A stretch of 45,400 nucleotides of DNA from Promethearchaeota archaeon (GTDB taxonomy: Archaea > Asgardarchaeota > Lokiarchaeia > Sigyniarchaeales > SOKP01): NCBI GenBank assembly GCA_029838195.1, contig JALGVJ010000041.1, forward strand, positions 1 to 45,400, written 5' to 3'. The position numbers were made by a program, and so were the translations under genes. The notes under the pieces were generated by a model. The model was given only the letters and a program-made list of their open reading frames with translations, was not told the origin of the DNA and searched no databases. Position 1 is the stretch's first letter; each line of letters begins with the position of its first letter. Shown one piece after another: positions 27,928 to 45,400 of this stretch.

Positions 27928-29592
27928 ATGTTGCTTAATGCTTTAGTAAATATCGGAAGAGTAATTGAAGGGGAGACTGAATTAGAGGATTTTGCTAAAA
28001 AATATGATCCTGAAATTGTTAAATTTATAAACATGAGGTATAGTTCTCCTCCAAAAATGGATCGAATTGTTAAAATAAACATAGCTCCAGGAATTTTAGA
28101 TGCTTTTGATACTGTGAAATTAGGAATTGAAAGAATTGACCCTGAATTTTGGAAAAATATTATAGATAAATTTAAAAAAAAACTTGATAAAAAGAAAAGA
28201 GATGAAAATAAAAAGGAAGTAATTAATGAAATCATTAAAAAATTAAATCTTGATATCAATGACTTTCAAAGATACATTTCTTTAGAAGTGATTGAATATA
28301 ATAAAGAACATCCCTATCTAATGTTAAGAGGAGAAAAAAAAGGGAATAATGTTTTTTTATCGCCGACGATGTTTACTAAAATTTCTTCAAAAAAAATTGA
28401 ATCTTTCCCCTTATGGAAGATAAATTTAGATATATCGTTAATTTTACCTGAAAAAGAAGATGAGGAAATAATTTTTATTAAAAATTTTTTTCAAAATTTA
28501 CCAAGTTTATCAGAAACTTCAAAAATTAAAGAAATAGATGCCGATCTAATTTTTAAATTTATTATTTCAGAGATTTTTTTAAGAGTATTAAATTCTGACA
28601 TCGAAAGAGAGAATTTAAAAACAGGTTATTATTTTTTTCCCATCTGTTTTAATGGGAAGTGGCCTTATAATATAGAGATATTTAAAGAGTATTATAAAAA
28701 AAAGACATTATCTGATGAAAATGCCCCAATAGGAATATGTTCGGGATGCGGAGAAAGAAAAAATGTAGAGAAGGGCCTAACAAAAGAATTAGGTTTTTTT
28801 AGCATCGATCAAAATAGTTTTACGTATTCTTTTTTCAAGGATTCGAACTACCAATTATGTAATGAATGTAAATACTTAGTCGAAGTTGGATTTAATCATG
28901 TAAAAAAAGATTTAAGAATTTTTTTAGGCGCACGTGGGAGGGGGAAGAGAAAGAATCCATATGAATTATACGTTATTCCGATTGCGGATGACCTTCAAAC
29001 ATTATCTAAAATTTTGAAAGAATTAAAATTTACTAAGGATTATAAGGAAAAGATTATTAAGGCAGGAGAGTTGGCGCAAGAATCGAATAATCAAGAAGAG
29101 GAAGAGGGAGAAGAAGTTTCCGAACAAATTTTACCCGCAAAAGAAGATTTACATAATTTTTTTATTAATTATTATTTTAGTAGGGGAGAAAAGAAAGAGA
29201 AAGATAGATTTGAATTATTATTAATTACATATTATCATCCAGATGGGCAATCAAGTGATTTTCATAATATCATATCTATCGATCTTTTAGATCATGAAAA
29301 AATAATCAAGTTATCCGATGTGCTTTCCGAATTAGAATTAAACGGGGAATTTATTTCTTTAAAAGATATCTTTTTCCTATTTGGAATCCATAAATTTAAA
29401 ACATATATCAGTAAATATCTAAATTTAAAAAGAATTGATTTATCTACATTATGTCGAGACGCTTATTTAAATCTTAAACAAGAATTTTTTAAATTCATGT
29501 CCAATCCATCTAATCCGCCTAATTTTATTAGACTTAATTTATATAGACTGAATATTTATTTCAAATTAATAAATAAATTGAATTTAATATGA
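27928..29592 (+). CDS. cas8b: Type I-B Cas8b (Csh1/TM1802-like) lacking its C-terminal bundle
   Basis: MLLNALVNIG start, GICSGCG and YQLCNEC Zn finger, FFSIDQ, YVIP; first gene of the cas7-cas5-cas3 operon. Confidence 0.82.
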   Translation: MLLNALVNIGRVIEGETELEDFAKKYDPEIVKFINMRYSSPPKMDRIVKINIAPGILDAFDTVKLGIERIDPEFWKNIIDKFKKKLDKKKRDENKKEVINEIIKKLNLDINDFQRYISLEVIEYNKEHPYLMLRGEKKGNNVFLSPTMFTKISSKKIESFPLWKINLDISLILPEKEDEEIIFIKNFFQNLPSLSETSKIKEIDADLIFKFIISEIFLRVLNSDIERENLKTGYYFFPICFNGKWPYNIEIFKEYYKKKTLSDENAPIGICSGCGERKNVEKGLTKELGFFSIDQNSFTYSFFKDSNYQLCNECKYLVEVGFNHVKKDLRIFLGARGRGKRKNPYELYVIPIADDLQTLSKILKELKFTKDYKEKIIKAGELAQESNNQEEEEGEEVSEQILPAKEDLHNFFINYYFSRGEKKEKDRFELLLITYYHPDGQSSDFHNIISIDLLDHEKIIKLSDVLSELELNGEFISLKDIFFLFGIHKFKTYISKYLNLKRIDLSTLCRDAYLNLKQEFFKFMSNPSNPPNFIRLNLYRLNIYFKLINKLNLI

Positions 29593-30974
29593 ATTTGAAT
29601 AAAACTAATAATATCATAGAATTCGAGATAAATCAAGAAGATATTAAGGATCCCTATTTCACATTAGGAGAAATTGCTCGTGAGCTTAATTATTATTTTT
29701 TTATTAGCAATAATAGAGAGGAAAAATATAATATTATAATAAAAAACATTCCTGTTTTTATTAATTGGATTATAAAATCAAGGACCAATTTTGAATATTT
29801 ATTAAAATTATATCAGTTCTTAGATAAAAGATTTAAAGTTTATTTACCACAAAAAAAAATAAGAAATATAAAGAACATTTTAAATAATTATAATAGAAAC
29901 CGTATAGATTTAGATAATGACAAGATCCTTTATTATAAAAAGATCCTTAAGCTATATCAAAGAATAAACAAGAAGTTCAAAAAATTAAAGGTTTTTTTTG
30001 ATAAAAAAGAAAATTATAGGGAGATTAAATATTCTTCTTTAGCTGATTTATATTTTTTACAAGGTTTTGATAATTTTTCCTTAAAAGGAGAAGATACCTT
30101 TTTAAATAAATGGATTGAAGGAACCATTTTAAATGATAATATTTCATATAAAATCGCATTTATTTTGGGAAGATATTATTATAGAGTAGCAGAAAATGAA
30201 ATCAAATTAGTTAAAAATCTTGGCTTATCAAAAAAAATAGTTTCTTGGCTGAAGAAAATTCAAATTGAGAATTTTATAACATTATTCCGAGAGATTACCA
30301 TATCTTATTTTCATTTATTACGGAAAAGGCAAGATTTAAATAATCCTAAAGAAAGTGAAAAATCTAATCCACTTAAATTAGATCATTTGATACGATATAG
30401 AAGAATAATTGAAAAACTCTTAGATGTTTTCTATTTCGAAAGCGAAACAACAATTAACAATAATAATATTAATAATAAAATGATACAATTTTGTTTCATG
30501 AGCGGGTTTTTAGTGAGGAATTCTCCCATAAAAAAATCCATGAGTACTTATAAGAAGCTTAATTTCCCTCAAAAAAATGAATATACTAAATTATTATATG
30601 ATTTAGGTAAAATGGTAAGAATGATTAGTGAATATGAATTAGAAGAATTCCAATCTCATTCTTTTAAAAATATTATTAAAAAATTTCAAGATTTAAATCA
30701 TTCGAATATTTTATACATTTTATTACATGTTTCTAAAATCTTAATAAGAAATTGGTTAAAAAATGTCCAAAATATTCTTGGTAAAGGAACAAATGATGAT
30801 TTAATAAAAATAAAATATATTTATACAAAAAGGTATCATGACATTATTTATAGATTTTTACACTTAGATCAAAATAAAAAGTTTGATAAATATGCTGGAC
30901 CAATCGTTTTCATGATTGGTTTTAGTTCAATTCCAATTAAAAGTAACCAAAATTCAAAGAAGGTGAAAAAATAA
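29589..30974 (+). CDS. Stand-alone protein of three tandem Cas11b-like (Cas8b C-terminal) domains
   Basis: Three units each running from (F/Y)xLG to FxxGF; ATGA overlap with cas8b; stop abuts the cas7 GTG. Confidence 0.65.
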   Translation: MNLNKTNNIIEFEINQEDIKDPYFTLGEIARELNYYFFISNNREEKYNIIIKNIPVFINWIIKSRTNFEYLLKLYQFLDKRFKVYLPQKKIRNIKNILNNYNRNRIDLDNDKILYYKKILKLYQRINKKFKKLKVFFDKKENYREIKYSSLADLYFLQGFDNFSLKGEDTFLNKWIEGTILNDNISYKIAFILGRYYYRVAENEIKLVKNLGLSKKIVSWLKKIQIENFITLFREITISYFHLLRKRQDLNNPKESEKSNPLKLDHLIRYRRIIEKLLDVFYFESETTINNNNINNKMIQFCFMSGFLVRNSPIKKSMSTYKKLNFPQKNEYTKLLYDLGKMVRMISEYELEEFQSHSFKNIIKKFQDLNHSNILYILLHVSKILIRNWLKNVQNILGKGTNDDLIKIKYIYTKRYHDIIYRFLHLDQNKKFDKYAGPIVFMIGFSSIPIKSNQNSKKVKK

Positions 30975-31922
30975 GTGAGCGAAAAAAATGAAATAATTAA
31001 GAAAAGAAGAGAATTAGTTTTTGTCTATTCTGTCAGAGAGGCAAATCCAAATGGTGATCCAGATGATGAGAATCGCCCTCGTACAGATGATGATGGATTC
31101 GCCTTAGTTTCTGATGTGCGGCTTAAAAGGACGATTCGAGATTATTGGTTGTCGAATAACAGTGATGTGCTCGTAAAAAGAGTTTATGATGAGAAGGGGA
31201 ATATTTATGACATGAATAAGAGGATTACTTCTGTTTTAAGTGAAGATGATGCTGCCGATCGAACAAAAATTCTTGAAAAAATTCCAAAACAGTTCATAGA
31301 TGCACGATTATTTGGATTTGTTGGAACCGTGAAAGGAGCTAATTGTTCGCTAACAGGACCAGTCCAATTTAGTATTGGAAAATCTCTTAATAAGCCGAAT
31401 ATAACAACCCATACAATAACATCGGTGATGGCCGGAGCTTCAGAGAAAGGAGGATCTATAGGAGCATTCCATATATTAGATTATGCGTTGATAAGATTTC
31501 AAGGGGTGATTTGCCCTAAATTAGCAGAGATTTCTAAAATGACAAAAAATGACTTGAAAGAGCTATATGCAGGAATTTGGAAAGGAACACAGACATTAAA
31601 CACGCGATCTAAATTTAATCACGTACCCAAATTGTTATTGGCCTTTAGAAGCAAGGATGGCGAGTTCTTATGTGGTGAATTAGCTTATCAATTAGAAATT
31701 GAAGAAACAGAGGATCATAATGAAGAACCGATATTAGTGTTAGATCGTTTAATTGAACGAATTATTAATTTAGCTGATGATAATATTGAAGCAGTCGAGT
31801 ATTTAATGCAAACAGGATTTAAGTTGAAATACAATGGAAACGAATATCTTACCTTTGAAGAGTTATGGAAGCAAACCCCTTTGAAAGACAAAACTAGCTT
31901 AGAATTAATAGAATTATTATGA
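30975..31922 (+). CDS. cas7: Type I-B Cas7/Csh2
   Basis: ANPNGDPDDENRPR, VSDVRLKRTIRDY, DARLFG, TGPVQF, TRSK. Confidence 0.96.
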   Translation: MSEKNEIIKKRRELVFVYSVREANPNGDPDDENRPRTDDDGFALVSDVRLKRTIRDYWLSNNSDVLVKRVYDEKGNIYDMNKRITSVLSEDDAADRTKILEKIPKQFIDARLFGFVGTVKGANCSLTGPVQFSIGKSLNKPNITTHTITSVMAGASEKGGSIGAFHILDYALIRFQGVICPKLAEISKMTKNDLKELYAGIWKGTQTLNTRSKFNHVPKLLLAFRSKDGEFLCGELAYQLEIEETEDHNEEPILVLDRLIERIINLADDNIEAVEYLMQTGFKLKYNGNEYLTFEELWKQTPLKDKTSLELIELL

Positions 31923-32728
31923 GGATGATGCAAGCTCTTTGTTTTGATATTAAATCACCGTTTGCTTCGTTTCGGAACCCAACAACGACGAGAGGGTTTC
32001 TTTCATTTCCGTTTCCTCCTAGAACGACACTAATGGGCCTTATTGGAGCAATTTTAGGTCTACCGAGGAATGAAATTTATTTGAATGATCATCCCTTAAA
32101 TGATATGGAAATTGCTTTAAAAGTATTAAATACACCTTTGACTATGAATTTTAGGACAAATCAACTCCAAACTGCTGAAGTTCTGACATTATATAAAAAA
32201 TTTAAAATTTTCTTACCTAAACTCTATATTAGAGGTAAATTATCTGCTGAACCTTCACCACAAAATCTAGTTTTACTTAAGGATGTTCATTATCGAGTAT
32301 TTATTAAAATCAAAAATCATCAACAAGAATTAATAGAGGAATTAGAGACTAAAATAAAAGAAAGAAAATATAGCTATCCTCCTTATTTAGGGCGGGCAAA
32401 TTACTTAGCATCTATTGATTTTATTGATAAAGTAAATTTAAAAGAATTAATAGTAGAAGATGAGTTGATTGACATTTCTACTTTATGTTCAGCTAAAGAC
32501 GTTAAAAATGTGGAATCAGGAAAATTTAGTATTATAACTAACGTACCCATGTCGTATATGACTGAAAAGATAAAAGGGGAACTCAAATTAGAACCAGGTT
32601 CATTGATAAGTATTATTTATTTTACGGAGAACATTAAAGTAATTCCAGCGAAAGAAATATATGAAATTACTTCTACTGAATGTGAGGATTTAAAAAACTT
32701 GAATATAATTTTCCTGTCTTATCAATAA
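31919..32728 (+). CDS. cas5: Type I-B Cas5
   Basis: FASFRNP, SFPFPPRTTLMGLIGAILG, YPPYLG. Confidence 0.95.
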   Translation: MRMMQALCFDIKSPFASFRNPTTTRGFLSFPFPPRTTLMGLIGAILGLPRNEIYLNDHPLNDMEIALKVLNTPLTMNFRTNQLQTAEVLTLYKKFKIFLPKLYIRGKLSAEPSPQNLVLLKDVHYRVFIKIKNHQQELIEELETKIKERKYSYPPYLGRANYLASIDFIDKVNLKELIVEDELIDISTLCSAKDVKNVESGKFSIITNVPMSYMTEKIKGELKLEPGSLISIIYFTENIKVIPAKEIYEITSTECEDLKNLNIIFLSYQ

Positions 32729-32819
32729 TTTTTATTTTTATCTTTAATAATTTTTAAGATCAACTATAAATTTCTTGAATTAACTGAAAATACCAATAAT
32801 TTAATGGTTTATTTATTAA

Positions 32820-33734
32820 ATGGTGGAAGAAATAAACACGGATTATATTGGTATTATTTTTCGGGATGATACAAGTTATGTTATTTTTAATTTTATAGAT
32901 CTTTGGCATTATTTAGAGTCTATATTTGAAGAAAATAACATTATAATTGAGAAGAATGAATTTGAAAATTTAAAGAAAGAAATTGTCTCTAATATTGATT
33001 CAAGTATTAAATGTTATTACGAGAATAGAGAATTTTATATAGTAAAAGATATCCTTGAGATAAAAACAATAGCATTATATTATGATGAGGATATAAATCT
33101 AGAGGATTATGAAGATGATCTTAGTGATTTTAATTTTGATGATTATTTGTTAGAAGATAATGGCCCAATAATTATTGATTATATTACTTGTTTTAATGAT
33201 AATGTCTTATATATTTATTCGAAAAAAAATAAGTACCAACCAATTGATGATGATTATAATCACTTAATAATTAAATTACCTTCTATTATTTCTTCGGAAT
33301 TTCAAATCCAAAATTATTGCCACATTTTTTGTAAATTAAGTATTTTATTTGTAATTTTTGAATATCTCATGAAGGATAATATGACCACACATATATATCA
33401 ACGATTTAATTTTAAGGACATGAAAATTAATACGATTCTGAAGCGCTTGAAGGGTAGCGTACAAATAAATAAAATTAATGATATAAAAACCGAAAAATCT
33501 CTATATTTTTCGGAAGATTATTCTCAATCGGATGTTTTTATTAATAAGTTATTAGTAAAAATATATAATATTCGTAATAAAATTTTTCATCAAGCTTATC
33601 CTAAAAATTTTACTCGACCTTCTAATTTCTCATATAAAGAGATTATAAAAATGTTTGAGATATTATGTAAAAATTATAAAGCATTTTTTGATTTTTTAGA
33701 AAAATGTGAAATGAGAGAAAATATTACAAATTAA
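32820..33734 (+). CDS. Hypothetical protein with a C-terminal HEPN-like domain
   Basis: 304-aa ORF between cas5 and cas3; IFEY...IRNKIFH (RxxxxH); acidic central tract. Confidence 0.6.
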   Translation: MVEEINTDYIGIIFRDDTSYVIFNFIDLWHYLESIFEENNIIIEKNEFENLKKEIVSNIDSSIKCYYENREFYIVKDILEIKTIALYYDEDINLEDYEDDLSDFNFDDYLLEDNGPIIIDYITCFNDNVLYIYSKKNKYQPIDDDYNHLIIKLPSIISSEFQIQNYCHIFCKLSILFVIFEYLMKDNMTTHIYQRFNFKDMKINTILKRLKGSVQINKINDIKTEKSLYFSEDYSQSDVFINKLLVKIYNIRNKIFHQAYPKNFTRPSNFSYKEIIKMFEILCKNYKAFFDFLEKCEMRENITN

Positions 33735-33777
33735 TTAGACTAAAGAATAAAGGAAATCATAAAAAAGGAAGAAAAGA

Positions 33778-36612
33778 ATGATTGAAATGCAAAATGCTGC
33801 AGATGTATTATTTAGAATTTTTGAAGACAATAATGAATATCCTAGCTTAGCAACCAAAAGATTGGAATGTGAACACCCAGAATTAATATATCATATCAAT
33901 AGGATGTTAGAAATATATTTTAAATTTAAAGATAAATTATGCCCGGCTAGTTCAAATGAGAATTTTCGATTTTTTCTTGACTTAATTATCAAGATCGCAA
34001 TAATTTTTCATGATTTGGGAAAATTGAATTGTTTTTTTCAATGGAAAATGGCAAGGAATACAAACAGGATTGAGGTGAATGCGGGAGAATTTATTGAAAT
34101 TAAGAAAACGTGGAGTTATCATACAGAATTATCCGCTCTGATGGCGTGGTGTTTCATTAATTATTTAAAAGGAAAAGTCGGCATTCTAAAACCTCAAGAT
34201 TCCAAGGACCTTGATGAAAAAATGAATATTTTAATTGAATATTTGGATATTATTATAGTTAATTCTATTTTAACACATCATTCTTCCTTAGGGAATATAG
34301 AAGATTTGAGTCGATTTAAAAACTTAAAGCAAAGCACCTATAAATCTTATTATTCAATTCTCGTAAGGTCTTATTTCATGTATATAAAGAAAAGCTTACC
34401 ACATTTGATTACTCACCTAACTAAAAAATGGCAAAATAATGAGAAGTTCTGTAACAAGAATCATGCATCTTTTAAAAGAAATTTCGATTTCTTAGAGAAT
34501 CTTATTAATTTTGTTAATGAATTTTCATATGCAATAAATTATTTAAGTGCAAATCCCTTAAAAATTTTGGAAGATTTTAAGGGCGCTTTAATAAGAGAAA
34601 AATTTGATAAAATATTAAAAAAAGAAAAGAAGGAAAGGAAAATTATTTTATTTTTCCTTATCATCCATCTCAGTTCTGTTTTAACACACCTTGATAAATG
34701 GGAAGCAACAACATCAAGAACGAATAATGATTATTTTAAAAGCTTAGAATTTGAATCTCCTTTAATAAATACTGATATTAGGGGAAATCCTATTAAGATA
34801 ATTTCAGAATACTTAATGATTAAGAAAAGTAAAAGAGAAGAACCGTACCCATTAGATGCCATACGCGACCTTTTTTCTGATCACATCATAAATGAAGCTC
34901 AACACATTGAATTAAATAAGATTTATACGCTTACAGCACCTTGTGGTATTGGTAAAACGTTAGCCCTCTTAAATCTTGCATTTAATTTAAGGAGGAAATT
35001 TTTTCAAAAATATCAGTATTATCCGAGAATCATTTATGCTCTGCCATTTATCTCTATCTGCGATCAATTAGAAAAAGAAATTCAACAAATCTTTAAATGT
35101 CAATCTCAAACTAATATTTTAACCATTCATCATTATTTATCAGATTTAGACAAAAACACCTCTTTACAAGATGAGGAGGAGTATGTACCAATCCAAGATT
35201 TTAAAACGCTAAATACCTATGAAATAAAGAATTGGTTCTCAGAAATTATCGTAACTACGACCATTAAACTTTTTAACACCTTATTTACCTTTAATAAAAA
35301 AAATCTCATGAGATTTCATAAATTAGCGAATACAATAATTATAATTGATGAATATCATAGTATTCCTAAAAAATATCACGAATTAGTGAGGTGTTGTTTA
35401 TTACTTTTAACACGATTGTTTAATATGACTTTCATATTAGCAACTGCTACTACAGCAGGTTTATTTTTAGAAAAAGATCCATTAATTGAGCTGACATCTG
35501 GTATTTCTGAGAAATTTAATCCTATTAATCGTTATAAATTAAGATTCCATAATTCCAAAAAGATTTCTGATGGAAAGATACAATTTTGTAATGAAATTGG
35601 TTTAGAGGAGGCAAAAGAATTTTGTAGAAAAAGTTGTGAACAAAATCTCGATAAAAGTATTATGATTGTAATGAATACCCGAAAAAATGCGAAAGAAATA
35701 TATGATTACTTGGTTAATCAATGTAATCTTAATAGACCCATTTGCCATCTCTCAGCTAATTTAATTCCTTATCATCGAAAAAAAATTTTAGAAAAAATAG
35801 AGAAAATATTAAATAATTCTTCAAAAAAGAGAGAAGAGAATATAAAAACAAATATCGTTTTGGTCACTACTCAATTAATAGAAGCGGGAATTGATATTAG
35901 TTTTCAAAAAATCATTAGAGACTTAGGACCTCTTTATTCCATAGTACAAGTGGCTGGACGGTGCAATAGAAACATGGAAATAAAAGATATTGATAAGCTT
36001 CCTATTATTGACATTATAAATATTGAAAACAGTTTTAATAAGGTGTATGACCCTATTGATATTGATTCCGTTAAGATATTTCTCGAAAAACTACAAACAA
36101 AATATCATGATGAGTCAATAATGAAACATCCCGAATCAAAACCATCCGATCCTATGCTATCTCAAGGAACTTATATCGAAATTAATGAAAAACAAGTAAG
36201 AGAACAATTTATTGAATATCCTAAGATATTAAATGATAGAAAAATTCGAGAAGATGATTGCTATGAAAATGTTCTAAAAATGAATTTTAAACATCTTACT
36301 AAGAATTTCAAATTAATTAAAGAATTAGTGGACATTCCCATTATAGTGATTCCTGCATTTAAAAATTCTACGGATCCTATGATAAAGGAAATTCCTAAAT
36401 TAATCACTGATTTAAAGCAAGAACGGAGAAATGATTTTCCAAGAAAGCTTTATTCGTTTATGACAGATATTTATAAGAGCCAAAAAAGCAAAATTAAAAC
36501 TCCGCCTTTTGAACGAATTACAAATAATGGAATGGAATATTATATCCTTGATTTAAATAATCCCGCTGCTAAAAAATATTATGATAAAAAATTGGGACTT
36601 ATAATAGAATAA
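33778..36612 (+). CDS. cas3: Cas3 HD nuclease-helicase
   Basis: HDLGK, HH, TAPCGIGKT, DEYH, ATAT, TTQLIEAGIDI, QVAGRCNR. Confidence 0.97.
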   Translation: MIEMQNAADVLFRIFEDNNEYPSLATKRLECEHPELIYHINRMLEIYFKFKDKLCPASSNENFRFFLDLIIKIAIIFHDLGKLNCFFQWKMARNTNRIEVNAGEFIEIKKTWSYHTELSALMAWCFINYLKGKVGILKPQDSKDLDEKMNILIEYLDIIIVNSILTHHSSLGNIEDLSRFKNLKQSTYKSYYSILVRSYFMYIKKSLPHLITHLTKKWQNNEKFCNKNHASFKRNFDFLENLINFVNEFSYAINYLSANPLKILEDFKGALIREKFDKILKKEKKERKIILFFLIIHLSSVLTHLDKWEATTSRTNNDYFKSLEFESPLINTDIRGNPIKIISEYLMIKKSKREEPYPLDAIRDLFSDHIINEAQHIELNKIYTLTAPCGIGKTLALLNLAFNLRRKFFQKYQYYPRIIYALPFISICDQLEKEIQQIFKCQSQTNILTIHHYLSDLDKNTSLQDEEEYVPIQDFKTLNTYEIKNWFSEIIVTTTIKLFNTLFTFNKKNLMRFHKLANTIIIIDEYHSIPKKYHELVRCCLLLLTRLFNMTFILATATTAGLFLEKDPLIELTSGISEKFNPINRYKLRFHNSKKISDGKIQFCNEIGLEEAKEFCRKSCEQNLDKSIMIVMNTRKNAKEIYDYLVNQCNLNRPICHLSANLIPYHRKKILEKIEKILNNSSKKREENIKTNIVLVTTQLIEAGIDISFQKIIRDLGPLYSIVQVAGRCNRNMEIKDIDKLPIIDIINIENSFNKVYDPIDIDSVKIFLEKLQTKYHDESIMKHPESKPSDPMLSQGTYIEINEKQVREQFIEYPKILNDRKIREDDCYENVLKMNFKHLTKNFKLIKELVDIPIIVIPAFKNSTDPMIKEIPKLITDLKQERRNDFPRKLYSFMTDIYKSQKSKIKTPPFERITNNGMEYYILDLNNPAAKKYYDKKLGLIIE

Positions 36613-36630
36613 GTATCCTTGGATAAAGTG

Positions 36631-37458
36631 TTATATTAAATATTTAAAAATTTCCAAAATTATTTTTCCTCTCTCCGTAATATATATTTTTTTATTTCTT
36701 TTTTCCTTAGAAATGCTAATATAACCAAGAAGTTGTTCCAAAGGTTGTAAAAGGGATTGATTGATTTTCATGTAATAGCTTGCACGACGTTTTCTTGGGT
36801 CGGCGTGTTTTTTTTCGAGTTTCAGAATATTTTTTTCGATTAATAAATCGATTAAATTTTTCTTATAGATAAACTTTTGAGGAGGTAAAGTAATTTTATC
36901 CTTATATTTCTCATGGATGGCTTCTTCAATGATCTTGAGTGTTTTGATAAATAATTCTTTGGGTTTTTGTAAGGGGAATAAGTTAGGTTCAATTATTATC
37001 ATTTGCCCTTCATGACGGGGGCCTTCTGGAGTAGGAGAATATTTAGTGGAAAAAACATAAATAATCTTACAATTCCATAATCTTGCTGCCTCAGCGGCGG
37101 CTAATGCCGTTATATTAGAGCCCGTTCCAGCGTTCATGATGATTTCGCAATTTGAATTTAGGGCTCGCTCTTTTTTAATGATTTTAGATAATTCTTGTAA
37201 AATCTCAATGTAATCCGTGTAGTCAAGGGGATTCTGGATAATTTCTAGGGAAGGGAGCTTTTCCTTTAAAATCTTACAATTTTTATGAAAAAAATCCATG
37301 TGTTCATCAGTTTGTCCCGTAGCTTTAATATTGGCTGTAAAATAATAGAATTTTTGAGGAGGGTTATTTAAAATGGGTGCAATAATCCGTTTATCTTCTT
37401 TACAATTAAAAGCGATGTGAATTTTTTCTGAAATGGCATTGGGATTTAATGTGGTCAT
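36631..37458 (-). CDS. CARF-wHTH transcriptional regulator (DUF6293/Csa3-like)
   Basis: KIHIAF...DKRIIAP, NAGTGS, C-terminal LLQPL...YITERGK winged helix. Confidence 0.8.
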   Translation of the reverse strand: MTTLNPNAISEKIHIAFNCKEDKRIIAPILNNPPQKFYYFTANIKATGQTDEHMDFFHKNCKILKEKLPSLEIIQNPLDYTDYIEILQELSKIIKKERALNSNCEIIMNAGTGSNITALAAAEAARLWNCKIIYVFSTKYSPTPEGPRHEGQMIIIEPNLFPLQKPKELFIKTLKIIEEAIHEKYKDKITLPPQKFIYKKNLIDLLIEKNILKLEKKHADPRKRRASYYMKINQSLLQPLEQLLGYISISKEKRNKKIYITERGKIILEIFKYLI

Positions 37459-37642
37459 GGTTCCGATATTTTATCGCAAGGAAGGAATTTTTAATAATTT
37501 TGTCTATAAATTATATTGATAATAAAATTTAAATGAGAGAGAAAAATTAAATTTAAAGGATAAAGTGCAAGTATGAAAAAAATTAATTATGAAATAAAAT
37601 CGATGGTTAATTCATAGATCAAAAAGACAAAAAAAAATAGGT

Positions 37643-38506
37643 GTGTTTATCACGATTGTTCTTACCTTTGAATTATATCCTGAAAATGGGCACATACGTC
37701 CTTATGAAGTGCCTTTTGGATATGTTTTTAGGGGCGTGCTCATGAAATGGTTGAGCGATTGCAAGCCCGAATTAGTACATGAACTTCATGCGCATGAGCA
37801 AATCCGCCCTTATTCCATTAATTTTTTCATTTACCGCAAAATTCCAAAAATCGAGTTCAAGCTCATCACGTATCATGACTTGATTAGTGAGGTGCTTTTA
37901 AAGGATCTCATCTCAAATAATAAGTCGAAATTGTACATGGGAGAAAAATGTTATATTTTGTCTCAAATAGGATTTGAGCGCATTGACATTTCACAATTGT
38001 TGCTTTCCACACAGCCGGTAAAGGCGTTTTCCATTCGGTTCGTAACCCCAGTTTACTTTAATACAAGTTTGGGAGAATATCCCGTTCGGTTTCCCCTTCC
38101 CTCTCTTTTTTTCGGCAACTTGGCTAATATCTGGAACGCTATTAATAGCAAAGTTGCGGAAATTAATCGGGATGAATTAATAAATTGGATCAATGCCCAT
38201 GTCTATATTAGTTATTATAAAATGAAAACGGTTCAAAGAGACATAGGAAAACCAGAAAAAGTAAGTGGAGGATTAGGATCTGCTTCTTTTAATGTGCAAA
38301 AAGTTAATAAAAAATATTATGAAAAATTATTAGAGAATCAAGAATATTCATCGGAGAACTTTTCCATTCAAGAACATTATTTAGATAAGTGTCGCTGGTT
38401 AGACGCCTTATGCAAATTAGGACAATATACGAATGTAGGAGCAAATCGCACGGCAGGACTTGGAGTCATTAATTATTATCCAAGGGAATATTTTAAGGAG
38501 GTTTAA
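37643..38506 (+). CDS. cas6: Cas6 endoribonuclease (copy 2)
   Basis: Clear paralog of 24391..25173; GANRTAGLG loop. Confidence 0.93.
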   Translation: MFITIVLTFELYPENGHIRPYEVPFGYVFRGVLMKWLSDCKPELVHELHAHEQIRPYSINFFIYRKIPKIEFKLITYHDLISEVLLKDLISNNKSKLYMGEKCYILSQIGFERIDISQLLLSTQPVKAFSIRFVTPVYFNTSLGEYPVRFPLPSLFFGNLANIWNAINSKVAEINRDELINWINAHVYISYYKMKTVQRDIGKPEKVSGGLGSASFNVQKVNKKYYEKLLENQEYSSENFSIQEHYLDKCRWLDALCKLGQYTNVGANRTAGLGVINYYPREYFKEV

Positions 38507-38580
38507 TGATGATGGAGTGCTTTAAGTTGCTTTCATGCTAGAAGCGGACTTTTAAAAGGTAATTCTCATGTTTGTCATTA

Positions 38581-39759
38581 TTACGTCCAATAGGGTGTTT
38601 TTAAGAAATTTATTGATTCCAGCCGATCTAAATTCATGTTGGTAAGCGCATGAGAAATTTTCTCAATTTCTCCATGTTCTAAATAAAGTTCTTTAGGATT
38701 GGATTCTAATATACTGGTAATAATTCCTTTAAAATCGGCATGGTCGCTTAAAGGCAGGTAAATATCAGCGGGATTTTCCTTTCGATATGACTCAAAAAGA
38801 ACTCTTCCTGAGGGTACAATGATAAGGGATTCGGGGGTAGCTAATTCATTATAAGGACTTTTATTTATTGCGTGAGGAGGAATGATGAGAACATGATTTC
38901 TCTCTTCTTTCAATTTTCTTTTACCATAGTGTTTATAAGGAGCCCAGTTTGGTAAGGCTCGGCCATTCTTTTCAAGGATTCTAGCGATTGCGGCTATGTC
39001 CCGATCTAAAATGATTTCTTCCTCACATTGGAGCATTTCATGAATGACTTGTGCTTTTCCAAAAATAGTACAGGGAATGATGATTAGTTTACCCAAATCC
39101 AAGTTTTCTTGAACGATTTTATTTAAAAATTTGCGCAGTTCGGCAACGGATGGAAACGAAATCGACGGATCACCGTAAGTGCATTCCGTAATTAAATAAT
39201 CACAAGGAATGGGATTAAAACACCTTATACAAACCACTTTCTCCGAAGAACAGCGTTTTTCTGTGATAAAATCTCCAGTATAAAGAATCTTTTCCTCAGC
39301 CTCAATCATTAAGCCTATAGAGCCCGGCGCATGTCCATTATCAAAAATTGTAAATTTCATGCCTTTATATTCCATAGATTGAGGAAGTTGAGGGGTTTTT
39401 CCCATTAACCATGCGTGCTCTGGAATGATCAATTGATTATTCGTTCTTAATTCTGCAATATCTTTTGAAATTTTCGTACAAATAAATTTAACATCGATTT
39501 TATTCATCCTGATTTTTTCAAGAATTTCCAGAGGTACCCGGGGAATGTGGTCCATGTGCGCATGGGAAATGAAAATGAGCTCGGCTTTGGGAATCCAACA
39601 ATCTAAAGCAATGAAAGTGTTCTTAACTTTTATGAATAAACCATTATTTTTGGTATTTCCTATAATGATATTCGCATTCTTATTTTTAATTCTTTTTTCT
39701 TGCCATTTTTTTATTTCGAAAACATGGTTTTGAAACATTTTCAAGTACCTCTTGGTCAA
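38581..39759 (-). CDS. Metallo-beta-lactamase/beta-CASP nuclease
   Basis: SHAHMDH, GHAPGS, YTGDF, TECTYG, SDHADF, HG motifs all present; 34 nt downstream of cas4. Confidence 0.88.
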   Translation of the reverse strand: MTKRYLKMFQNHVFEIKKWQEKRIKNKNANIIIGNTKNNGLFIKVKNTFIALDCWIPKAELIFISHAHMDHIPRVPLEILEKIRMNKIDVKFICTKISKDIAELRTNNQLIIPEHAWLMGKTPQLPQSMEYKGMKFTIFDNGHAPGSIGLMIEAEEKILYTGDFITEKRCSSEKVVCIRCFNPIPCDYLITECTYGDPSISFPSVAELRKFLNKIVQENLDLGKLIIIPCTIFGKAQVIHEMLQCEEEIILDRDIAAIARILEKNGRALPNWAPYKHYGKRKLKEERNHVLIIPPHAINKSPYNELATPESLIIVPSGRVLFESYRKENPADIYLPLSDHADFKGIITSILESNPKELYLEHGEIEKISHALTNMNLDRLESINFLKTPYWT

Positions 39760-39793
39760 GATTGTATTTCCTTTCCCTCTTACGAGTTTTTTA

Positions 39794-40459
39794 TCAAACT
39801 CTCAAACAATAATTCCGACATTCACAATCCGAACATTTTTTCTCCTCCTTGATGGGATCTGGCATGATTTCTGATTCAAGCATGGCTTTAATTTCCCGAA
39901 GGATCTGCATGACCCGTAATCTCTCTTCCACATCGATATAATAATCCACAAATTTGTCGTACTTAATATAATACACGCGCACTCTATTCACCAAAAAATC
40001 AAAATTTTTTTCTATCAATATTGCTTGAGCTATAGCCTGATATTTGTCGGGATTATCCAGTCCCTCAGAAGGCATGTTTCCCGTTTTAAACTCTACCGGA
40101 TATGCCTCTTTTCCATCATATTCAAAAAAATCAATTAATCCCACCAAACCTAATTCAGGATCATTTAAATAAACATTATAATAGCGATGAGCATACTTCT
40201 CGCTGAAATTTTTCTTGTTTTTAATTTTCTCGATATGCTCATGCTTTTCTTTTCCAAATTCCATTTTATAAGTCGGGGGCATGGGTGCTCTAAGAACATA
40301 TCGAAAATATAGCTTTCTTTTACAATAGAGATATTGCCGAATATCTTCCGTCCCAATGAAAGGGGTGGCGTATAAATATACATTAGGATTCGTATCTCTC
40401 AGTTGCCGCAACTGGTATTCACTCATCTTGTATTTCTTATAAGGTTCTTTTTCCTTCAC
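39794..40459 (-). CDS. cas4: Cas4
   Basis: QYLYCKRK, GLID, PVEFK, CSDCECRNYC Fe-S cysteines. Confidence 0.95.
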   Translation of the reverse strand: MKEKEPYKKYKMSEYQLRQLRDTNPNVYLYATPFIGTEDIRQYLYCKRKLYFRYVLRAPMPPTYKMEFGKEKHEHIEKIKNKKNFSEKYAHRYYNVYLNDPELGLVGLIDFFEYDGKEAYPVEFKTGNMPSEGLDNPDKYQAIAQAILIEKNFDFLVNRVRVYYIKYDKFVDYYIDVEERLRVMQILREIKAMLESEIMPDPIKEEKKCSDCECRNYCLRV

Positions 40460-40503
40460 TCATGGACTCCCTCCAATTTTTTCTATATTTTAACATGAAC
40501 TCT

Positions 40504-40797
40504 TCACATGGAAAGAATATCCTCAATGATTTTATAGCCATCTGCAAATTTCGATTTCACCGTAATGACATTTTGATGACATGAATTGCATACAGGAATA
40601 ACGCGTACATCTGCCTCAATTTTTTTTACCACCCTATCTAATCTCATGGCGATCTCCTCGGCTTTACTCCTCGTTAATTCTCCGTAAAATACGGAATAAT
40701 TTAATCGAACCATGCCGTAAGATAATAAAAGATCGGAAATCTTTTTCCGAACGGGGTCATGTTCCACGGGAATATCGTATATTATTAAATATCGCAT
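40504..40797 (-). CDS. cas2: Cas2
   Basis: YLIIYDI, YSVFYGEL, PVCNSC. Confidence 0.96.
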   Translation of the reverse strand: MRYLIIYDIPVEHDPVRKKISDLLLSYGMVRLNYSVFYGELTRSKAEEIAMRLDRVVKKIEADVRVIPVCNSCHQNVITVKSKFADGYKIIEDILSM

Positions 40798-40884
40798 GTA
40801 CTCACTTCCGTTTTTATTTTTTTTATTTTACTTTCTTGACCTTTTTTTCACGTTTTAATTACAATTCTATTTAGATTTAATTGA

Positions 40885-41976
40885 TTACCAATTCATTATA
40901 AACGGCTCGTACTGCTTGGTTTTCCCCAGCAAGAAATTTGCTACTTTTCTCGCTTGACGAATCATCTGCGCTTTATAATTTATTTTTACCTTTTTCTTCT
41001 GCTTTGAGGAGGAGGGAGACGCATGCTTCTTTTCTCCAAAAATTTCTTGAGCTTGAGAACCCCCAAAAACCTCTTCTTTTAGTTTCTGATAAAAAATCCC
41101 CTTTTTCTCCTTTTTAAGATTATATCCTTGAAAAGACGATTCAAAATCTTCCGGTTTAATTACCTCTTTAAAAATCAGTTTCGCAACTAAACGATCTACA
41201 ACGGGTTGCCTAAATTCTTCTAAAAGATCTAAAGCTAAAGAAGGCTTGCCCGAACGATCGCTGTGCAAATATCCTCCATACAATTCCAATCCCGCCGCTG
41301 CTATTGCCGTTGTCACGTATCCTTGAAGGACAGTATATCCTAACGATAATAAAGAATTAACGGGATCCCGCGGAGGACGGCGCGTTCTCCTTAAAACCTT
41401 GAATCCATCGGGAAACAAATTCCCGTAATTTAGAAAATAAATCGCCGTCGATTTACCTTCCATGCCCATTAAGATGCTCCTTACCTCACTTATCCGCTTT
41501 CCTTTCATTTCATGACGTGAAAACGTCATTAATTTCTCCTCAATTTTTCCTATTTTTTTTGCGGCGGCCCGCAACATGCGATATTTACCCGGATTAGACT
41601 CTCTCCTATTTTTCGCAAAATACAACAATAACCTGCGCTTGTTCTCTATCGTTGAATACACAAATCGAGACGCCAAATGGCAACCCCGCCAATCTTCATA
41701 AGCAAGAATTTGCTGCCGCCGCGTGTGAATGGTCCCCAAATTAACAAAAGGCGTGTAAATGCCAAAAGGCTTCCCCATTGACGTGTAGATAATGTTAATC
41801 GCATGATATGATAATGCATGTAATGCCTGCGTGGATATTTGAATCCCTTGGTTCACGATCAAGCTCTCTATTTCTCTCAATGGGACAAGAATTGGTTTAT
41901 TATTTGGAACCGTGAGCTTTAACATTTCTTTTTCCTTTCCAACTCTCGTACCTGGCGTTTCTAATATCACGTCCAA
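40885..41976 (-). CDS. cas1: Cas1
   Basis: MGMEG, RRPPRDPVNSLLSLGY, GYLH, SLALDLLEEFRQPVVD; TTG start after AGGTGG. Confidence 0.97.
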   Translation of the reverse strand: MDVILETPGTRVGKEKEMLKLTVPNNKPILVPLREIESLIVNQGIQISTQALHALSYHAINIIYTSMGKPFGIYTPFVNLGTIHTRRQQILAYEDWRGCHLASRFVYSTIENKRRLLLYFAKNRRESNPGKYRMLRAAAKKIGKIEEKLMTFSRHEMKGKRISEVRSILMGMEGKSTAIYFLNYGNLFPDGFKVLRRTRRPPRDPVNSLLSLGYTVLQGYVTTAIAAAGLELYGGYLHSDRSGKPSLALDLLEEFRQPVVDRLVAKLIFKEVIKPEDFESSFQGYNLKKEKKGIFYQKLKEEVFGGSQAQEIFGEKKHASPSSSKQKKKVKINYKAQMIRQARKVANFLLGKTKQYEPFIMNW

Positions 41977-42087
41977 TCCAAATCCACCTTATCCTTTCTT
42001 TTCCAATTCATTCAATTTCCAAAGGGCTCCTTTTGCCCGTATTAATTTTTTTAATTTTTTTAATTTTTTTTCGTTAAACATGTCTTT

Positions 42088-43509
42088 CTACCTAAAAGAT
42101 TTTCCGATTAATTCCCATATAGTAAGCATGGTAGGAAATTCCAAATGAACCGGTTTAACTATTAAAAATTGCCCAAATGCCCCCATTATTTCTTCAATTT
42201 CTAAATGGATTGCTTGATTTTTACTTTTGTCAAATGTGCTAAAGAATTTCTCCTGATTAAAAAAACCCAGTTCCGGATGCTCCGCTACATCATTCAAAAC
42301 CTTATCAAAATAATGTACCCATCCCCCTTTCTCCAATACAAGTTCCTCTAATCTCCTAATTACTCGATGATTTTCTAAATAACTTCTCAAATTCTCACTT
42401 AATGGCGTAAAACCATCCATGATATCGTGATAATCCACAATTTCAAGCTCGTGATGCTCCAAAATCCTTCTTATCAACTCTATCAAGAACGTTATTGAAG
42501 GCATTAACCACTCGTGAATCCGCTGTTTTACTACAAATCTCATATCTTGACTCCAATAACTCAATAATATCCATTCATTTACCGTAAATGAAGAAGAACC
42601 TCTCAAAAATCCACACCCATTTAAAATTCGCACTTGTCTTCTTAGCTCCCCCATTGCGCTCCAAGATGACCCGTTAATTGAAGCATTATAACTCTTGACA
42701 TACCGCTCTATCTCCTGTTGAACTTCTGATATTACTCCCGAAAGTAATGGTAAATTTAATATCTGCTTACTTCGCCCTAAAATCACCCCAAATAACCCTC
42801 CATTCCAAATCATTTGATATTTTATACTATCCAATGAGCCTATCAATATCTTCAATCTACAACTATCTTCTATTAATAATCCAATCCCATGATTTTTCAA
42901 ACACGGATTCAAAAGCTCCGGATCTAAAGGAAATTGACAACGCGGATTAAATATGTCCTCACAAAGCCCTTTCCACTGCCGATTAAACCCCTTGCCCCTA
43001 GTATCACTCTCCTCCTCATAATATTCATCAATAAAATCTCCTTGACCAAAAAATTCTTTCACACTACCATGATGACCTCCAGTTTTAGCATCACCATTCA
43101 AAGCCAAACTCCCACGTAACAAGCCCTCCAAACATTCCCAATACCCATGATATACCTTGGAAAAACAGCTGGAACAAAGGGCCACGGGAATGCCACGTGT
43201 CTTGAATAAGTCACCTACTTTTAATTCTTTAAAACAACCAGAACAATATCGTCCCTCAGATAACAACACGCTCACGGGACCAAAAAAAAATGATAACTGC
43301 GATGCCTCCCCCTCCCTAACGACATCTATATACGGATACCAACAACCATCATGCGGTTTATACACGATCCGCTTTATCACGCTCCTCGGATATAAATAAT
43401 CCATCATGCCCTCATGAAATACCCCATCCCACGCACTATACTGTGCTCTTGCCTCCTCGCCTAACTCCCTCTCCAATTCCGCTTTTATTGATAAATTCGA
43501 CTCCAACAT
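42088..43509 (-). CDS. Divergent DUF2797-like Cys-rich (Zn-finger) protein
   Basis: CSGC...CSSCF...C...C..C...CLKNH, LKI, and C-terminal GAFGQFLI...LIG follow the DUF2797 motif order (recognised from memory of the family). Confidence 0.55.
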   Translation of the reverse strand: MLESNLSIKAELERELGEEARAQYSAWDGVFHEGMMDYLYPRSVIKRIVYKPHDGCWYPYIDVVREGEASQLSFFFGPVSVLLSEGRYCSGCFKELKVGDLFKTRGIPVALCSSCFSKVYHGYWECLEGLLRGSLALNGDAKTGGHHGSVKEFFGQGDFIDEYYEEESDTRGKGFNRQWKGLCEDIFNPRCQFPLDPELLNPCLKNHGIGLLIEDSCRLKILIGSLDSIKYQMIWNGGLFGVILGRSKQILNLPLLSGVISEVQQEIERYVKSYNASINGSSWSAMGELRRQVRILNGCGFLRGSSSFTVNEWILLSYWSQDMRFVVKQRIHEWLMPSITFLIELIRRILEHHELEIVDYHDIMDGFTPLSENLRSYLENHRVIRRLEELVLEKGGWVHYFDKVLNDVAEHPELGFFNQEKFFSTFDKSKNQAIHLEIEEIMGAFGQFLIVKPVHLEFPTMLTIWELIGKSFR

Positions 43510-43994
43510 TATTTCTACTCCCTAATCCCTCCTACCATGTTCAAATAACTCCTTTGAATTTTATTTTAAATTCCACCATTTAGAATCTGCCACCTCATCA
43601 ATCTCATATAATGTGACCTCCTTTTCACACACCACATTCCTTCCCTCTCACTTTAATTGAAAAATTTTATTATTTCTCCTAATAATATATACCTAAATAC
43701 GCACACGATTTGCGCCGACAAATCTCTATCATCCTTTATTACCACCCATTCAAATCTTCTTCTTTGCGTCTTCTCCGCCTCCTTCTTGCTACTTCTCGAT
43801 CTTCCTTATTAACCACTTAATAAAAGAATTTATTTTTAAATTTTTTCCTCTTCTTATTCCCCATTAGAATCTCGCTAAAACAAAAATCCTCCCATTAATC
43901 AATAAATCCACATCGAGCAGTAAATATATTAAAGTAAAGCCCATTCTACTTCACTTTAAACCCCCAAAACCAATTCTTGCTCCCTAATTTCCTA

Positions 43995-44225
43995 CTTCCT
44001 CCTTTTTTCCCATTCCCCAATTCGAACAAGCTCTTCTTTTCACTTTCCATTCCTCACCCCCATCCCATCTCCCATTTTTATTTTTAAACTATTTAAATAT
44101 TTCCGAGCACCACCCACCTCCCCCTTTTTAAAAGCGCGAACTTGCTAAAAAAATCTTCACTTCTCGATGAAAAAAATCCTAAAAATTAAAATTGAAGCAA
44201 AGTTGATTAAACGATCTCCTAGGAG
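43995..44225 (+). repeat. Degenerate third copy of the distal leader segment
   Basis: Colinear similarity to 5281-5495 and 44472-44660 (caagctc, tttaaatatt..cgagca, aaaatt.aag, ttgat..aacgatct). Confidence 0.7.
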
Positions 44226-44471
44226 ATAAATGAAAACCATCCATTATGGTACTCACATTAAAATTCGAAAACGGACACATCTCCTTCCCAAAACCAGCCT
44301 GAATTATCCATTCAATCGATTTATATCCTATTATCATTATTATATTCTAAAAATAAATTTCTCCAAATTTAATCTTCCCAAATCATGAATTCTTGATGAA
44401 TTTCCTCATATAACCCCATATCAATAAGAATTTAATAACCATTAAATTTTTTCCAATATCTCCGATGGGAA

Positions 44472-45059
44472 AAGCTCCTCAATTCACCTCCCATTATTCA
44501 CCCTCTTTCAAATCCCCATTTTCATATTTAAAGTATTTAAATATTTTCGAGCAACACCCCACTCCCATTTATAAAGGAAAAAAATCATTAAATAAATCTC
44601 CTTGCTACCATTATAAAAATTCGAAAAATCAAAATTAAAGCCAAATTGATCGAACGATCTTTCGTTAAATCAATGCTACATGCCCATCAGGATGCTCATG
44701 ATAAAATTCTGAAATGGGCGATTCTCCTCCCTGAATTGATTCCCTTTCAACCTTCTTTCATGAAAAAAACCCTTGCTCGCCATTCTCCAAGAAGCACTTT
44801 TTGTCGAGGATCCTTTATTAAGAACTCGATCGATCGGTAATGCTCGACCACTTGATGAAAAAATCGAAATCAAAAATATTAAAGGAAGCTCTAATATCAC
44901 TAAAATATTGCTGGAAACCGACTTAATTAAAATCTATAAATCAAGATTGACCAACTCCAGATGAAAGGATTATTGTTCTTGAAAACGGCGGGATGATCAT
45001 GAAAAAATAGGAAAAAATTTATATAGGAGATTTATATTATATATTATAAATATATAATA
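44472..45059 (+). promoter_or_regulatory. CRISPR leader 2, with TATA box at 45018-45025
   Basis: Homologous to leader 1; last 42 nt identical. Confidence 0.88.
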
Positions 45060-45400
45060 GTCGCAAAGGAATAAGCTTCAAATAGAAGATTGAAATTGTT
45101 CCCATATTAATTCGTCAAGCTCGTTAGCCACTGCGTCGCAAAGGAATAAGCTTCAAATAGAAGATTGAAATGATGAGCAAGACCGAGAGAGAATTGATTT
45201 GGTCTCTTAATGTCGCAAAGGAATAAGCTTCAAATAGAAGATTGAAATCGTATTTGATGATAAAGGGAATTTATTGACTTTAGGCAGTCGCAAAGGAATA
45301 AGCTTCAAATAGAAGATTGAAATTATTATTGATGATGTAATCTGGAATCTCTATCTTGAAGTCGCAAAGGAATAAGCTTCAAATAGAAGATTGAAATTGT
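45060..45400 (+). CRISPR. CRISPR array 2 (5 repeats visible, truncated by window end); repeat GTCGCAAAGGAATAAGCTTCAAATAGAAGATTGAAAT
   Basis: Repeats at 45060, 45135, 45212, 45287, 45361; T at positions 13 and 37. Confidence 0.98.

Follow-up and report, generated by a model that had tools for sequence, protein, structure and literature searches.

Here, we describe a metallo-beta-lactamase (MBL)/beta-CASP nuclease encoded directly behind cas4 in a 45,400-nucleotide stretch of contig JALGVJ010000041.1 (Promethearchaeota archaeon, assembly GCA_029838195.1), hereafter called the window. The gene occupies 38581–39759 of the minus strand and closes a series that reads, 5′ to 3′ on that strand, a cysteine-rich gene of 473 aa, cas1, cas2, cas4 and the nuclease, with short gaps. 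We conclude that the nuclease is probably a dedicated component of a five-gene adaptation cassette confined to one Loki-type Asgard family. Its conserved and specific linkage qualifies it, by the usual comparative-genomic criterion, as a cas gene of the adaptation module, and it is a putative accessory nuclease of that module, of a fold not previously assigned to this stage of CRISPR immunity. Prespacer sizing and the repair of integration intermediates are partly understood processes, thought to need Cas4, DnaQ-type 3′-5′ exonucleases and unidentified host enzymes. If our interpretation is correct, a nuclease of the 5′-3′ type hard-wired into the cassette would offer an experimental handle on the 5′-end and repair side of spacer capture. 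It would also represent a second, independent recruitment of beta-CASP enzymes by CRISPR systems, after Cas14, and a case of the archaeal lineage nearest to eukaryotes turning the ligase-associated exonuclease, a DNA-repair module, to immune use.

An intact nuclease gene downstream of cas4

The nuclease is a single open reading frame (ORF) whose maximal product, from a TTG start at 39759, is 392 aa long. An in-frame ATG at 39738 would give 385 aa, and because this start is preceded 8 nt upstream by a Shine-Dalgarno-like AGGT motif and coincides with where the closest homologue, P0003, begins, the shorter product is probably the real one; residue numbers nevertheless refer to the 392-aa ORF throughout. 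Depending on the start, the gene begins 34 nt (TTG) or 55 nt (ATG) 3′ of cas4 (39794–40459, minus strand), which is intact: it scores 134 bits on TIGR00372 (cut-off 65) and keeps the iron-sulfur cysteines and the D/ExK motif (C46, D110, E123-x-K125 and C209/C212/C218).

An earlier note on this DNA, made from the letters alone, had described a compact protein directly downstream of cas4 with complete metal-binding motifs and no extra C-terminal domain, and this description holds up in each particular. In an alignment of 32 homologues, MBL motifs 1 to 4 and beta-CASP motifs A, B and C are all present in the window protein and conserved across the family. The metal-binding core is MBL motif 2, HAHMDH (39547–39564, minus strand; H66-A-H68-M-D70-H71), of which H66, H68, D70 and H71 are invariant in the 32 members, as is H143 of motif 3 (G142-H143). 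D53 (MBL motif 1), D163 (MBL motif 4), E192 (beta-CASP motif A) and both D339 and H340 of motif B (S338-D339-H340; 38740–38748, minus strand) are conserved in at least 90% of members, and motif C (H362-G363, with the His362 codon at 38674–38676, minus strand) has His in most members and Asn or Ser in a few. An AlphaFold2 model built from the homologue alignment has a predicted local distance difference test (pLDDT) score of 91.5 and a complete MBL plus beta-CASP fold spanning residues 28–389; the sole addition is an N-terminal helix at residues 3–25, and the model is without an extra domain at the C-terminus. Together, motifs and model predict a catalytically competent two-metal beta-CASP nuclease.

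The fold places the protein within the beta-CASP subfamily of the MBL superfamily without indicating a substrate. VIA-align matched it to an archaeal CPSF (2xr1), with Z 31.1 over 329 aligned residues at a root-mean-square deviation of 3.4, and to TTHA0252 (3a4y; Z 30.6), CPSF73 (Z ~30), Cas14 (9j9e; Z 29.6) and RNase J2 (Z 28.5), the aligned span covering model residues ~28–389 in these matches. RNA-acting enzymes matched at Z 27–31, and because every beta-CASP class ties in that same range, the search does not discriminate between DNA and RNA enzymes. Profile comparison gave E-values of 4e-19 to CPSF73 and 6e-14 to Apollo. Pfam returned the MBL domain below threshold and nothing else, and PADLOC held no model matching the protein.

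Linkage to cas1, cas2 and cas4

Genomic context was read at 13 distinct loci from genome and metagenome collections (L001–L009, the 11 genome loci L085–L095 and the metagenome contig L115, 13 when repeats are merged), a count that leaves aside the database homologues P0003–P0035, including the deep-branching P0033, P0034 and P0035. At all 13, cas2 and cas4 lie directly upstream of the nuclease on the same strand, as does cas1 wherever the contig reaches that far. The order cysteine-rich gene-cas1-cas2-cas4-nuclease is constant in nine Promethearchaeota genome loci, as far as their contigs extend, and the run cas1-cas2-cas4-nuclease, with gaps of 22–57 nt, recurs in L001–L009, L085–L095 and L115. 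In contrast, cas1, cas2 and cas4 were found in none of 156 loci (1.8 Mb) with more distant homologues. The neighbourhood analysis that the earlier note had proposed as a check thus sets 13/13 cas-linked clade loci against 0/156.

The distribution of the gene is equally specific. A profile search of 400 Asgard genomes gave matches above 450 bits solely in the Genome Taxonomy Database (GTDB) family of the window, in 10 of its 134 other genomes. Across the 135 genomes of this family, the nuclease clade and the Cas1 type of the window (E 1e-60 or better) occur in the identical 11 genomes, at 12 loci, and neither is present without the other. A metagenome scan, dominated by distant homologues, contributed at least one clade member, on contig L115, which is cas-linked; a scan of viral contigs gave no relative of the nuclease, and a second search of the phylum, started from a different genome, covered the same set and returned no further locus.

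Selection has acted on the gene. The ratio of nonsynonymous to synonymous substitution rates (dN/dS) is 0.18 and 0.27 in the two closest nuclease pairs, at unsaturated dS of 0.57–0.86, and the gene is under purifying selection. Moreover, three well-supported sister pairs of the Cas1 tree recur as sister pairs in the nuclease tree. Matching sister pairs and dN/dS together show that the nuclease is conserved and under selection as part of the adaptation cassette. These data bear on the possibility that a DNA-repair-type nuclease gene was captured once beside cas4 and has been inherited with the cassette ever since, as a passenger that contributes nothing to CRISPR immunity. One archaeal family accounts for all the linked loci, whose shared arrangement may therefore go back to one event in an ancestor, and one copy, in genome G163, is disrupted. 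However, the gene has been kept while Cas1 diverged to ~60% identity and the nuclease itself to ~37–44%, its dN/dS stands at ~0.2 with catalytic residues invariant, it has survived a cassette inversion and effector-module swaps (see below), and its co-occurrence with this Cas1 type is perfect in the 135 genomes. We therefore regard a passenger as very improbable.

The nuclease stays with the adaptation genes

From its position, the nuclease could belong either to the adaptation genes or to the effector genes. Type I-B effectors lie beside the cassette in the window, in L001–L003 and in L007, and a cas3b fragment does so in L009. In L001–L003 and L007, the nuclease has cas4 on one side and an I-B effector operon of the same direction on the other, an arrangement that is ambiguous by itself. 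Other loci are more informative. In the window, cas6 converges on the nuclease gene with 74 nt between their ends; the adaptation cassette thus has the opposite orientation to the effector block, and the nuclease has moved together with cas4. In L009, the cas3b fragment that follows the nuclease is reversed. In L006 (genome G153; L006:10861–19791), the genes beyond the cassette encode a Csa3-like regulator and a complete type I-D module consisting of Cas10d, Cas11d, Cas7d, Cas5d, Cas3d and Cas6; since this locus carries the full I-D module, the cassette swaps between I-B and I-D partners inside one archaeal family. The nuclease remains behind cas4 in every arrangement. The inversion in the window, the reversed cas3b fragment and the type I-D partner therefore assign the nuclease to the adaptation genes.

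The same arrangements bear on whether the nuclease helps interference or priming, degrading target DNA nicked by Cas3 or Cas10d and thereby feeding fragments to Cas1-Cas2-Cas4 in primed adaptation. In five loci, the gene stands directly between cas4 and the gene for the large subunit of an effector operon that runs in the same direction, and the beta-CASP DNA enzymes SNM1A and Apollo are processive 5′-3′ exonucleases, an activity that would suit such a task. Against this, the nuclease is found with two effector types and with the adaptation genes in all cases, and in the window it is separated from the effector block. We consider a priming helper quite unlikely, although it overlaps with the role in spacer capture that we propose below and the two cannot be separated from sequence.

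Relatives and evolutionary position

Close homologues are few. A search of 5.8 billion proteins found ~35 at E 1e-48 or better, and all of those bearing taxon names are from Promethearchaeota or Lokiarchaeota metagenome-assembled genomes; beyond them the matches drop sharply to E ~1e-20 and to proteins of 320–340 aa. An exhaustive search of 1.84 billion cluster representatives likewise gave only 10 clusters below 1e-30. Weaker homologues (25–28% identity, ~340 aa) are near-universal in other Asgard families, where they adjoin housekeeping genes, the one for the proteasome alpha subunit among them. The genome of the window encodes one cas-linked copy and three distant beta-CASP paralogues, one of them a 636-aa aCPSF1-like gene (G000:C54), so that the housekeeping beta-CASP enzymes of this organism are encoded elsewhere.

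We placed the nuclease in an IQ-TREE phylogeny of 71 proteins, 31 of them from the cas-linked clade, with cas context confirmed for the subset that lies on genome loci. The 31 members are monophyletic, with a Shimodaira-Hasegawa-like approximate likelihood ratio test (SH-aLRT) support of 100 and a stem of 0.84, and are nested among compact archaeal beta-CASP proteins (SH-aLRT 97) from Parvarchaeota, non-cas Asgard archaea, Nitrososphaerota and Methanohalarchaeum. Compact bacterial proteins from Planctomycetota and Gemmatimonadota adjoin this archaeal group, the forks being unresolved. The aCPSF-type paralogues of the genome and the Cas14-like standalone proteins fall on the far side of the tree; only standalone proteins stand for Cas14 in it because the 400 Asgard genomes contain no true Cas14 over the family cut-off. 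The phylogeny that the earlier note had suggested therefore groups the nuclease with compact ligase-associated-like relatives, far from aCPSF1 and the Cas14-like proteins, and where that note had allowed for a single-copy housekeeping clade with no cas linkage elsewhere, we find a clade of its own with SH-aLRT 100 and all 13 readable loci cas-linked.

The compact relatives score 136–182 bits on TIGR04122, the ligase-associated exonuclease family, and the clade members P0033 and P0034 score 95–97 bits. Two relatives, P0108 (885 aa) and P0133 (941 aa), are natural fusions in which the beta-CASP exonuclease module is N-terminal and an ATP-dependent DNA ligase C-terminal. Further matches of ~680–940 aa among the cluster representatives are of the same fusion type. 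Relative to these proteins, the N-terminal helix and three inserts, at residues ~74–92, 112–127 and 172–180, are gains of the cas-linked clade, which keeps all catalytic residues. These relationships suggest that the cas-linked nuclease descends from a ligase-associated or ligase-fused exonuclease family.

Proposed role in spacer capture

Because an intact nuclease is combined with an obligate Cas1-Cas2-Cas4 linkage and a ligase-tied ancestry, we favor a role in DNA-end processing, in which the nuclease acts on DNA ends during spacer capture as a dedicated component of the adaptation cassette. The DNA substrate, the polarity and the adaptation step are all matters that we infer. Sequence relationships tilt towards a DNA substrate, since the nearest relatives are ligase-associated-like and some are fused to an ATP-dependent DNA ligase. 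Two modes of action may be envisaged. The nuclease could resect or trim DNA fragments in the 5′-to-3′ direction, which would generate 3′-overhang duplexes for Cas1-Cas2-Cas4, or it could remove 5′ ends or flaps at the integrated spacer, allowing the gaps to be filled and sealed. The first mode is one of the examples that the earlier note had put forward, beside trimming of RNA, and the second would fit the ligase-associated ancestry. Cas4 and DnaQ/DEDDh exonucleases are the known prespacer-trimming nucleases, and host 5′-3′ exonucleases are thought to carry out analogous prespacer processing in other systems.

Several observations weigh against a DNA-end-processing role. The top fold matches are RNA enzymes (aCPSF1, TTHA0252, CPSF73, RNase J and Cas14), and SNM1, Apollo and Artemis are absent from the 50 best fold matches ranked by Z. 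Motif C is His, the state typical of RNA-acting beta-CASP members, though ligase-type relatives carry His as well, so this motif does not discriminate between DNA and RNA in the present family. Cas4 is intact, and thus no nuclease function is obviously missing from the cassette. The nearest archaeal relatives outside cas loci lack ligase neighbours and adjoin genes for a proteasome alpha subunit and a major facilitator superfamily transporter instead. In genome G163, the nuclease (L009:3978–5104, the same locus as L095) is broken into separate ORFs of 173 and 195 aa, which may be a pseudogene or an assembly frameshift; because cas1, cas2 and cas4 upstream of it look intact, the nuclease may be dispensable or losable. 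Finally, the nuclease of the ligase cluster is itself termed "putative" in PMC10140301.

Some of these points would equally suit an RNase directed at CRISPR transcripts or at other RNA, which might, for instance, trim CRISPR RNA (crRNA) ends after Cas6 cleavage and which is simply co-transcribed with the adaptation genes. The RNA enzymes among the closest solved folds (aCPSF1, TTHA0252, CPSF73 and RNase J) match at Z 28–31, motif C is His, and the RMMBL "RNA specificity" domain PF07521 is among the precomputed Pfam matches of some homologues. The ligase-type relatives, however, likewise have the motif C His and the RMMBL region, and the sequence is nearest to ligase-associated and ligase-fused exonucleases rather than to aCPSF or RNase J. 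In a cyanobacterium, crRNA maturation has reportedly been linked to a beta-CASP RNase J (PMC12464536); in the window, cas6 lies 74 nt from the end of the gene, and the arrays are shared with a type III module. Yet the nuclease follows cas4 and never cas6 in all arrangements, and stays with cas1-cas2-cas4 despite the inversion in the window, the reversed cas3b fragment in L009 and the type I-D swap in L006. We consider an RNase of this kind unlikely, and retain processing of DNA ends as the preferred role.

The cysteine-rich first gene of the cassette

The first gene of the cassette (42088–43509, minus strand) encodes a 473-aa protein with eight invariant cysteines (C89, C92, C112, C115, C126, C183, C191 and C203) and an invariant PCL motif inside a conserved NPCLKNHGIGL-like stretch. 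Orthologues at 26–33% identity lie upstream of cas1 in eight other loci (L001–L003 and L005–L009). The protein had no match in Pfam, NCBIfam or PADLOC, its model (pLDDT 68) had no fold match in the PDB (Foldseek E >1, VIA Z <=5.5), and the ESM Atlas gave no usable match. The cassette has, however, already been partly catalogued through this zinc-finger gene. Its entry in Altae-Tran et al. 2023 (supplement to PMC10910872), UAS-44 or "Acquisition (DUF2797 large zinc finger protein)", leaves the nuclease unnamed and is represented by JAEOTA010000034:18467-19766. That representative maps onto the orthologue of the 473-aa gene in L007, the same contig, which also carries cas1-cas2-cas4-nuclease. 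The DUF2797 relationship was not reproduced with HMMER, in that a Pfam search to E 5 gave one chance match to an RNA-dependent RNA polymerase, and a PF10977 search of the whole genome gave no match in the window.

More tentatively, and as a proposal that may well prove wrong, we speculate that the nuclease and the cysteine-rich protein are obligate partners of Cas1-Cas2-Cas4 in an undescribed route of prespacer maturation or post-integration repair. Such a system would have built in the 5′-end processing for which other CRISPR systems rely on host repair enzymes, and the nuclease would constitute a new adaptation Cas family, recruited from a DNA-ligase-associated repair nuclease.

The cassette and its surroundings

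Between cas4 and the cysteine-rich gene lie cas2 (40504–40797, minus strand) and cas1 (40885–41976, minus strand), both identified by profile matches. Two CRISPR arrays run on the plus strand. Array 1 (5895–14739) has 118 repeats of 37 nt with spacers mostly of 36–40 nt, and array 2 (45060–45397) has at least 5 repeats and continues beyond the end of the window; its AT-rich leader (~45020–45059) is divergent from the adaptation cassette. The size of the arrays points to an adaptation system that has been active. The type I-B effector block and the cas6 that follows it occupy 27928–38506 of the plus strand (cas8b-like gene, 461-aa gene, cas7b, cas5b, 304-aa orphan, cas3b), with a winged helix-turn-helix regulator gene on the minus strand near the block (36631–37458), and the type III module is also on the plus strand. 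Two genes of the I-B operon have no match in Pfam, NCBIfam or PADLOC, namely the 461-aa gene after the cas8b-like gene (29589–30974, plus strand) and the 304-aa orphan between cas5 and cas3 (32820–33734, plus strand).

Within 38001–44000, the G+C fraction of the cassette is 0.35–0.38 versus 0.25–0.30 for the neighbouring effector genes, and GC skew falls to -0.49 at 42–44 kb. The cassette is compositionally distinct as well as inverted, a combination suggestive of a block that was relocated or gained on its own. Non-coding DNA of 1.5 kb separates the cassette from array 2 and contains a ~440-nt direct duplication at 44003–44640, with 129-nt cores at 44003 and 44447 that are 73% identical, plus shorter copies; a third partial copy, at 44999–45029, abuts the leader of array 2, and the copies may be degenerate duplicated leaders. 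The plus strand at 43510–44130 is very pyrimidine-rich, and an Rfam search of the window gave no match. Elsewhere in the genome, a second cas4 (G000:C29:10-477; TIGR00372, 96.6 bits) is located at the extreme end of a contig, and because of that position it may mark a further cas locus split by assembly.

Comparison with known systems

The literature that we covered, which did not extend to Makarova et al. 2020 on Asgard CRISPR, yielded no report of a beta-CASP/MBL nuclease in an adaptation module. In the portions of the main and supplementary text of PMC10910872 available to us, the terms "lactamase" and "CASP" occur only with Cas14/type VII and in a methods list. UAS-44 is the same cassette seen through its zinc-finger gene, and differs from the present description in that the catalogue entry names that gene alone (PMC10910872).

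The fold and metal site are shared with aCPSF1/FttA, aCPSF2, RNase J, CPSF73, SNM1A, Apollo and Artemis. Unlike aCPSF1/FttA, the window nuclease is without KH domains, and the 636-aa paralogue is a separate gene of the same genome; unlike the housekeeping beta-CASP enzymes, it is patchy, present in 11 of 135 genomes. Its scores on the corresponding NCBIfam models are 40 bits for aCPSF1 (TIGR03675, cut-off 580) and 17.5 bits for RNase J1 (NF047419, cut-off 820). The tree, the patchy distribution and the separate paralogues all argue against a chance placement of a housekeeping aCPSF2 or RNase J beside cas4, and we reject it.

The best-scoring family is TIGR04122 (Xnuc_lig_assoc), the ligase-associated DNA damage response exonuclease, at 117 bits and E 7.5e-34. 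This exonuclease and the window nuclease are both compact, single-module MBL plus beta-CASP proteins with the same motifs, including the His at motif C. The window nuclease is nevertheless far under the 325-bit cut-off and has no ligase, Lhr or phosphoesterase neighbours, its flanking genes in all loci being cas4, cas2, cas1 and cas6 or effector genes; the TIGR04122 relatives are never cas-linked, whereas the window clade always is and in addition has the N-terminal helix, the three inserts and a long stem. Identity as an equivalog of the ligase-associated exonuclease is thus rejected on both score and neighbourhood. In PMC10140301, the MBL protein of the LigB/Lhr/phosphodiesterase cluster is called a putative nuclease and ligase-nuclease fusions are noted, the bacterial cluster of LigB, Lhr, phosphoesterase and MBL protein being cited there to Ejaz & Shuman 2018.

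Cas14, the type VII effector nuclease (Altae-Tran et al. 2023, PMC10910872; Makarova et al. 2025, PMC12669027), is also a beta-CASP nuclease of archaeal CRISPR-cas loci, with a matching fold (Z 29.6 to 9j9e). Type VII operons combine it with cas7 and cas5 and have no adaptation module (PMC12669027). The window nuclease, in contrast, is encoded behind cas1-cas2-cas4 and beside I-B or I-D effectors, lacks the Cas10-like C-terminal domain, and scores 43 bits on the Cas14 model (NF045584, cut-off 800) over residues 61–247 only. Score, missing domain, operon partners and tree position all reject Cas14 identity, and the earlier note was right to propose a CRISPR association distinct from type VII, given that the protein fails every Cas14 criterion tested. 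Separately, L195–L200 (Asgard families f18 and f21) encode standalone proteins of ~430–470 aa that score 440–483 bits on the Cas14 model, over positions 1–437 only, the beta-CASP part; they may lie near the source lineage of Cas14.

With Cas4 and the DnaQ/DEDDh exonucleases, the window nuclease has in common that it is a nuclease in, or recruited to, the adaptation module, with prespacer-end processing as the activity we would expect of it. Cas4, with its PD-(D/E)xK site and iron-sulfur cluster, and the DEDDh enzymes have folds unrelated to the MBL/beta-CASP fold. Because Cas4 is present and intact in the same cassette, the beta-CASP nuclease is an addition to Cas4 rather than its replacement.

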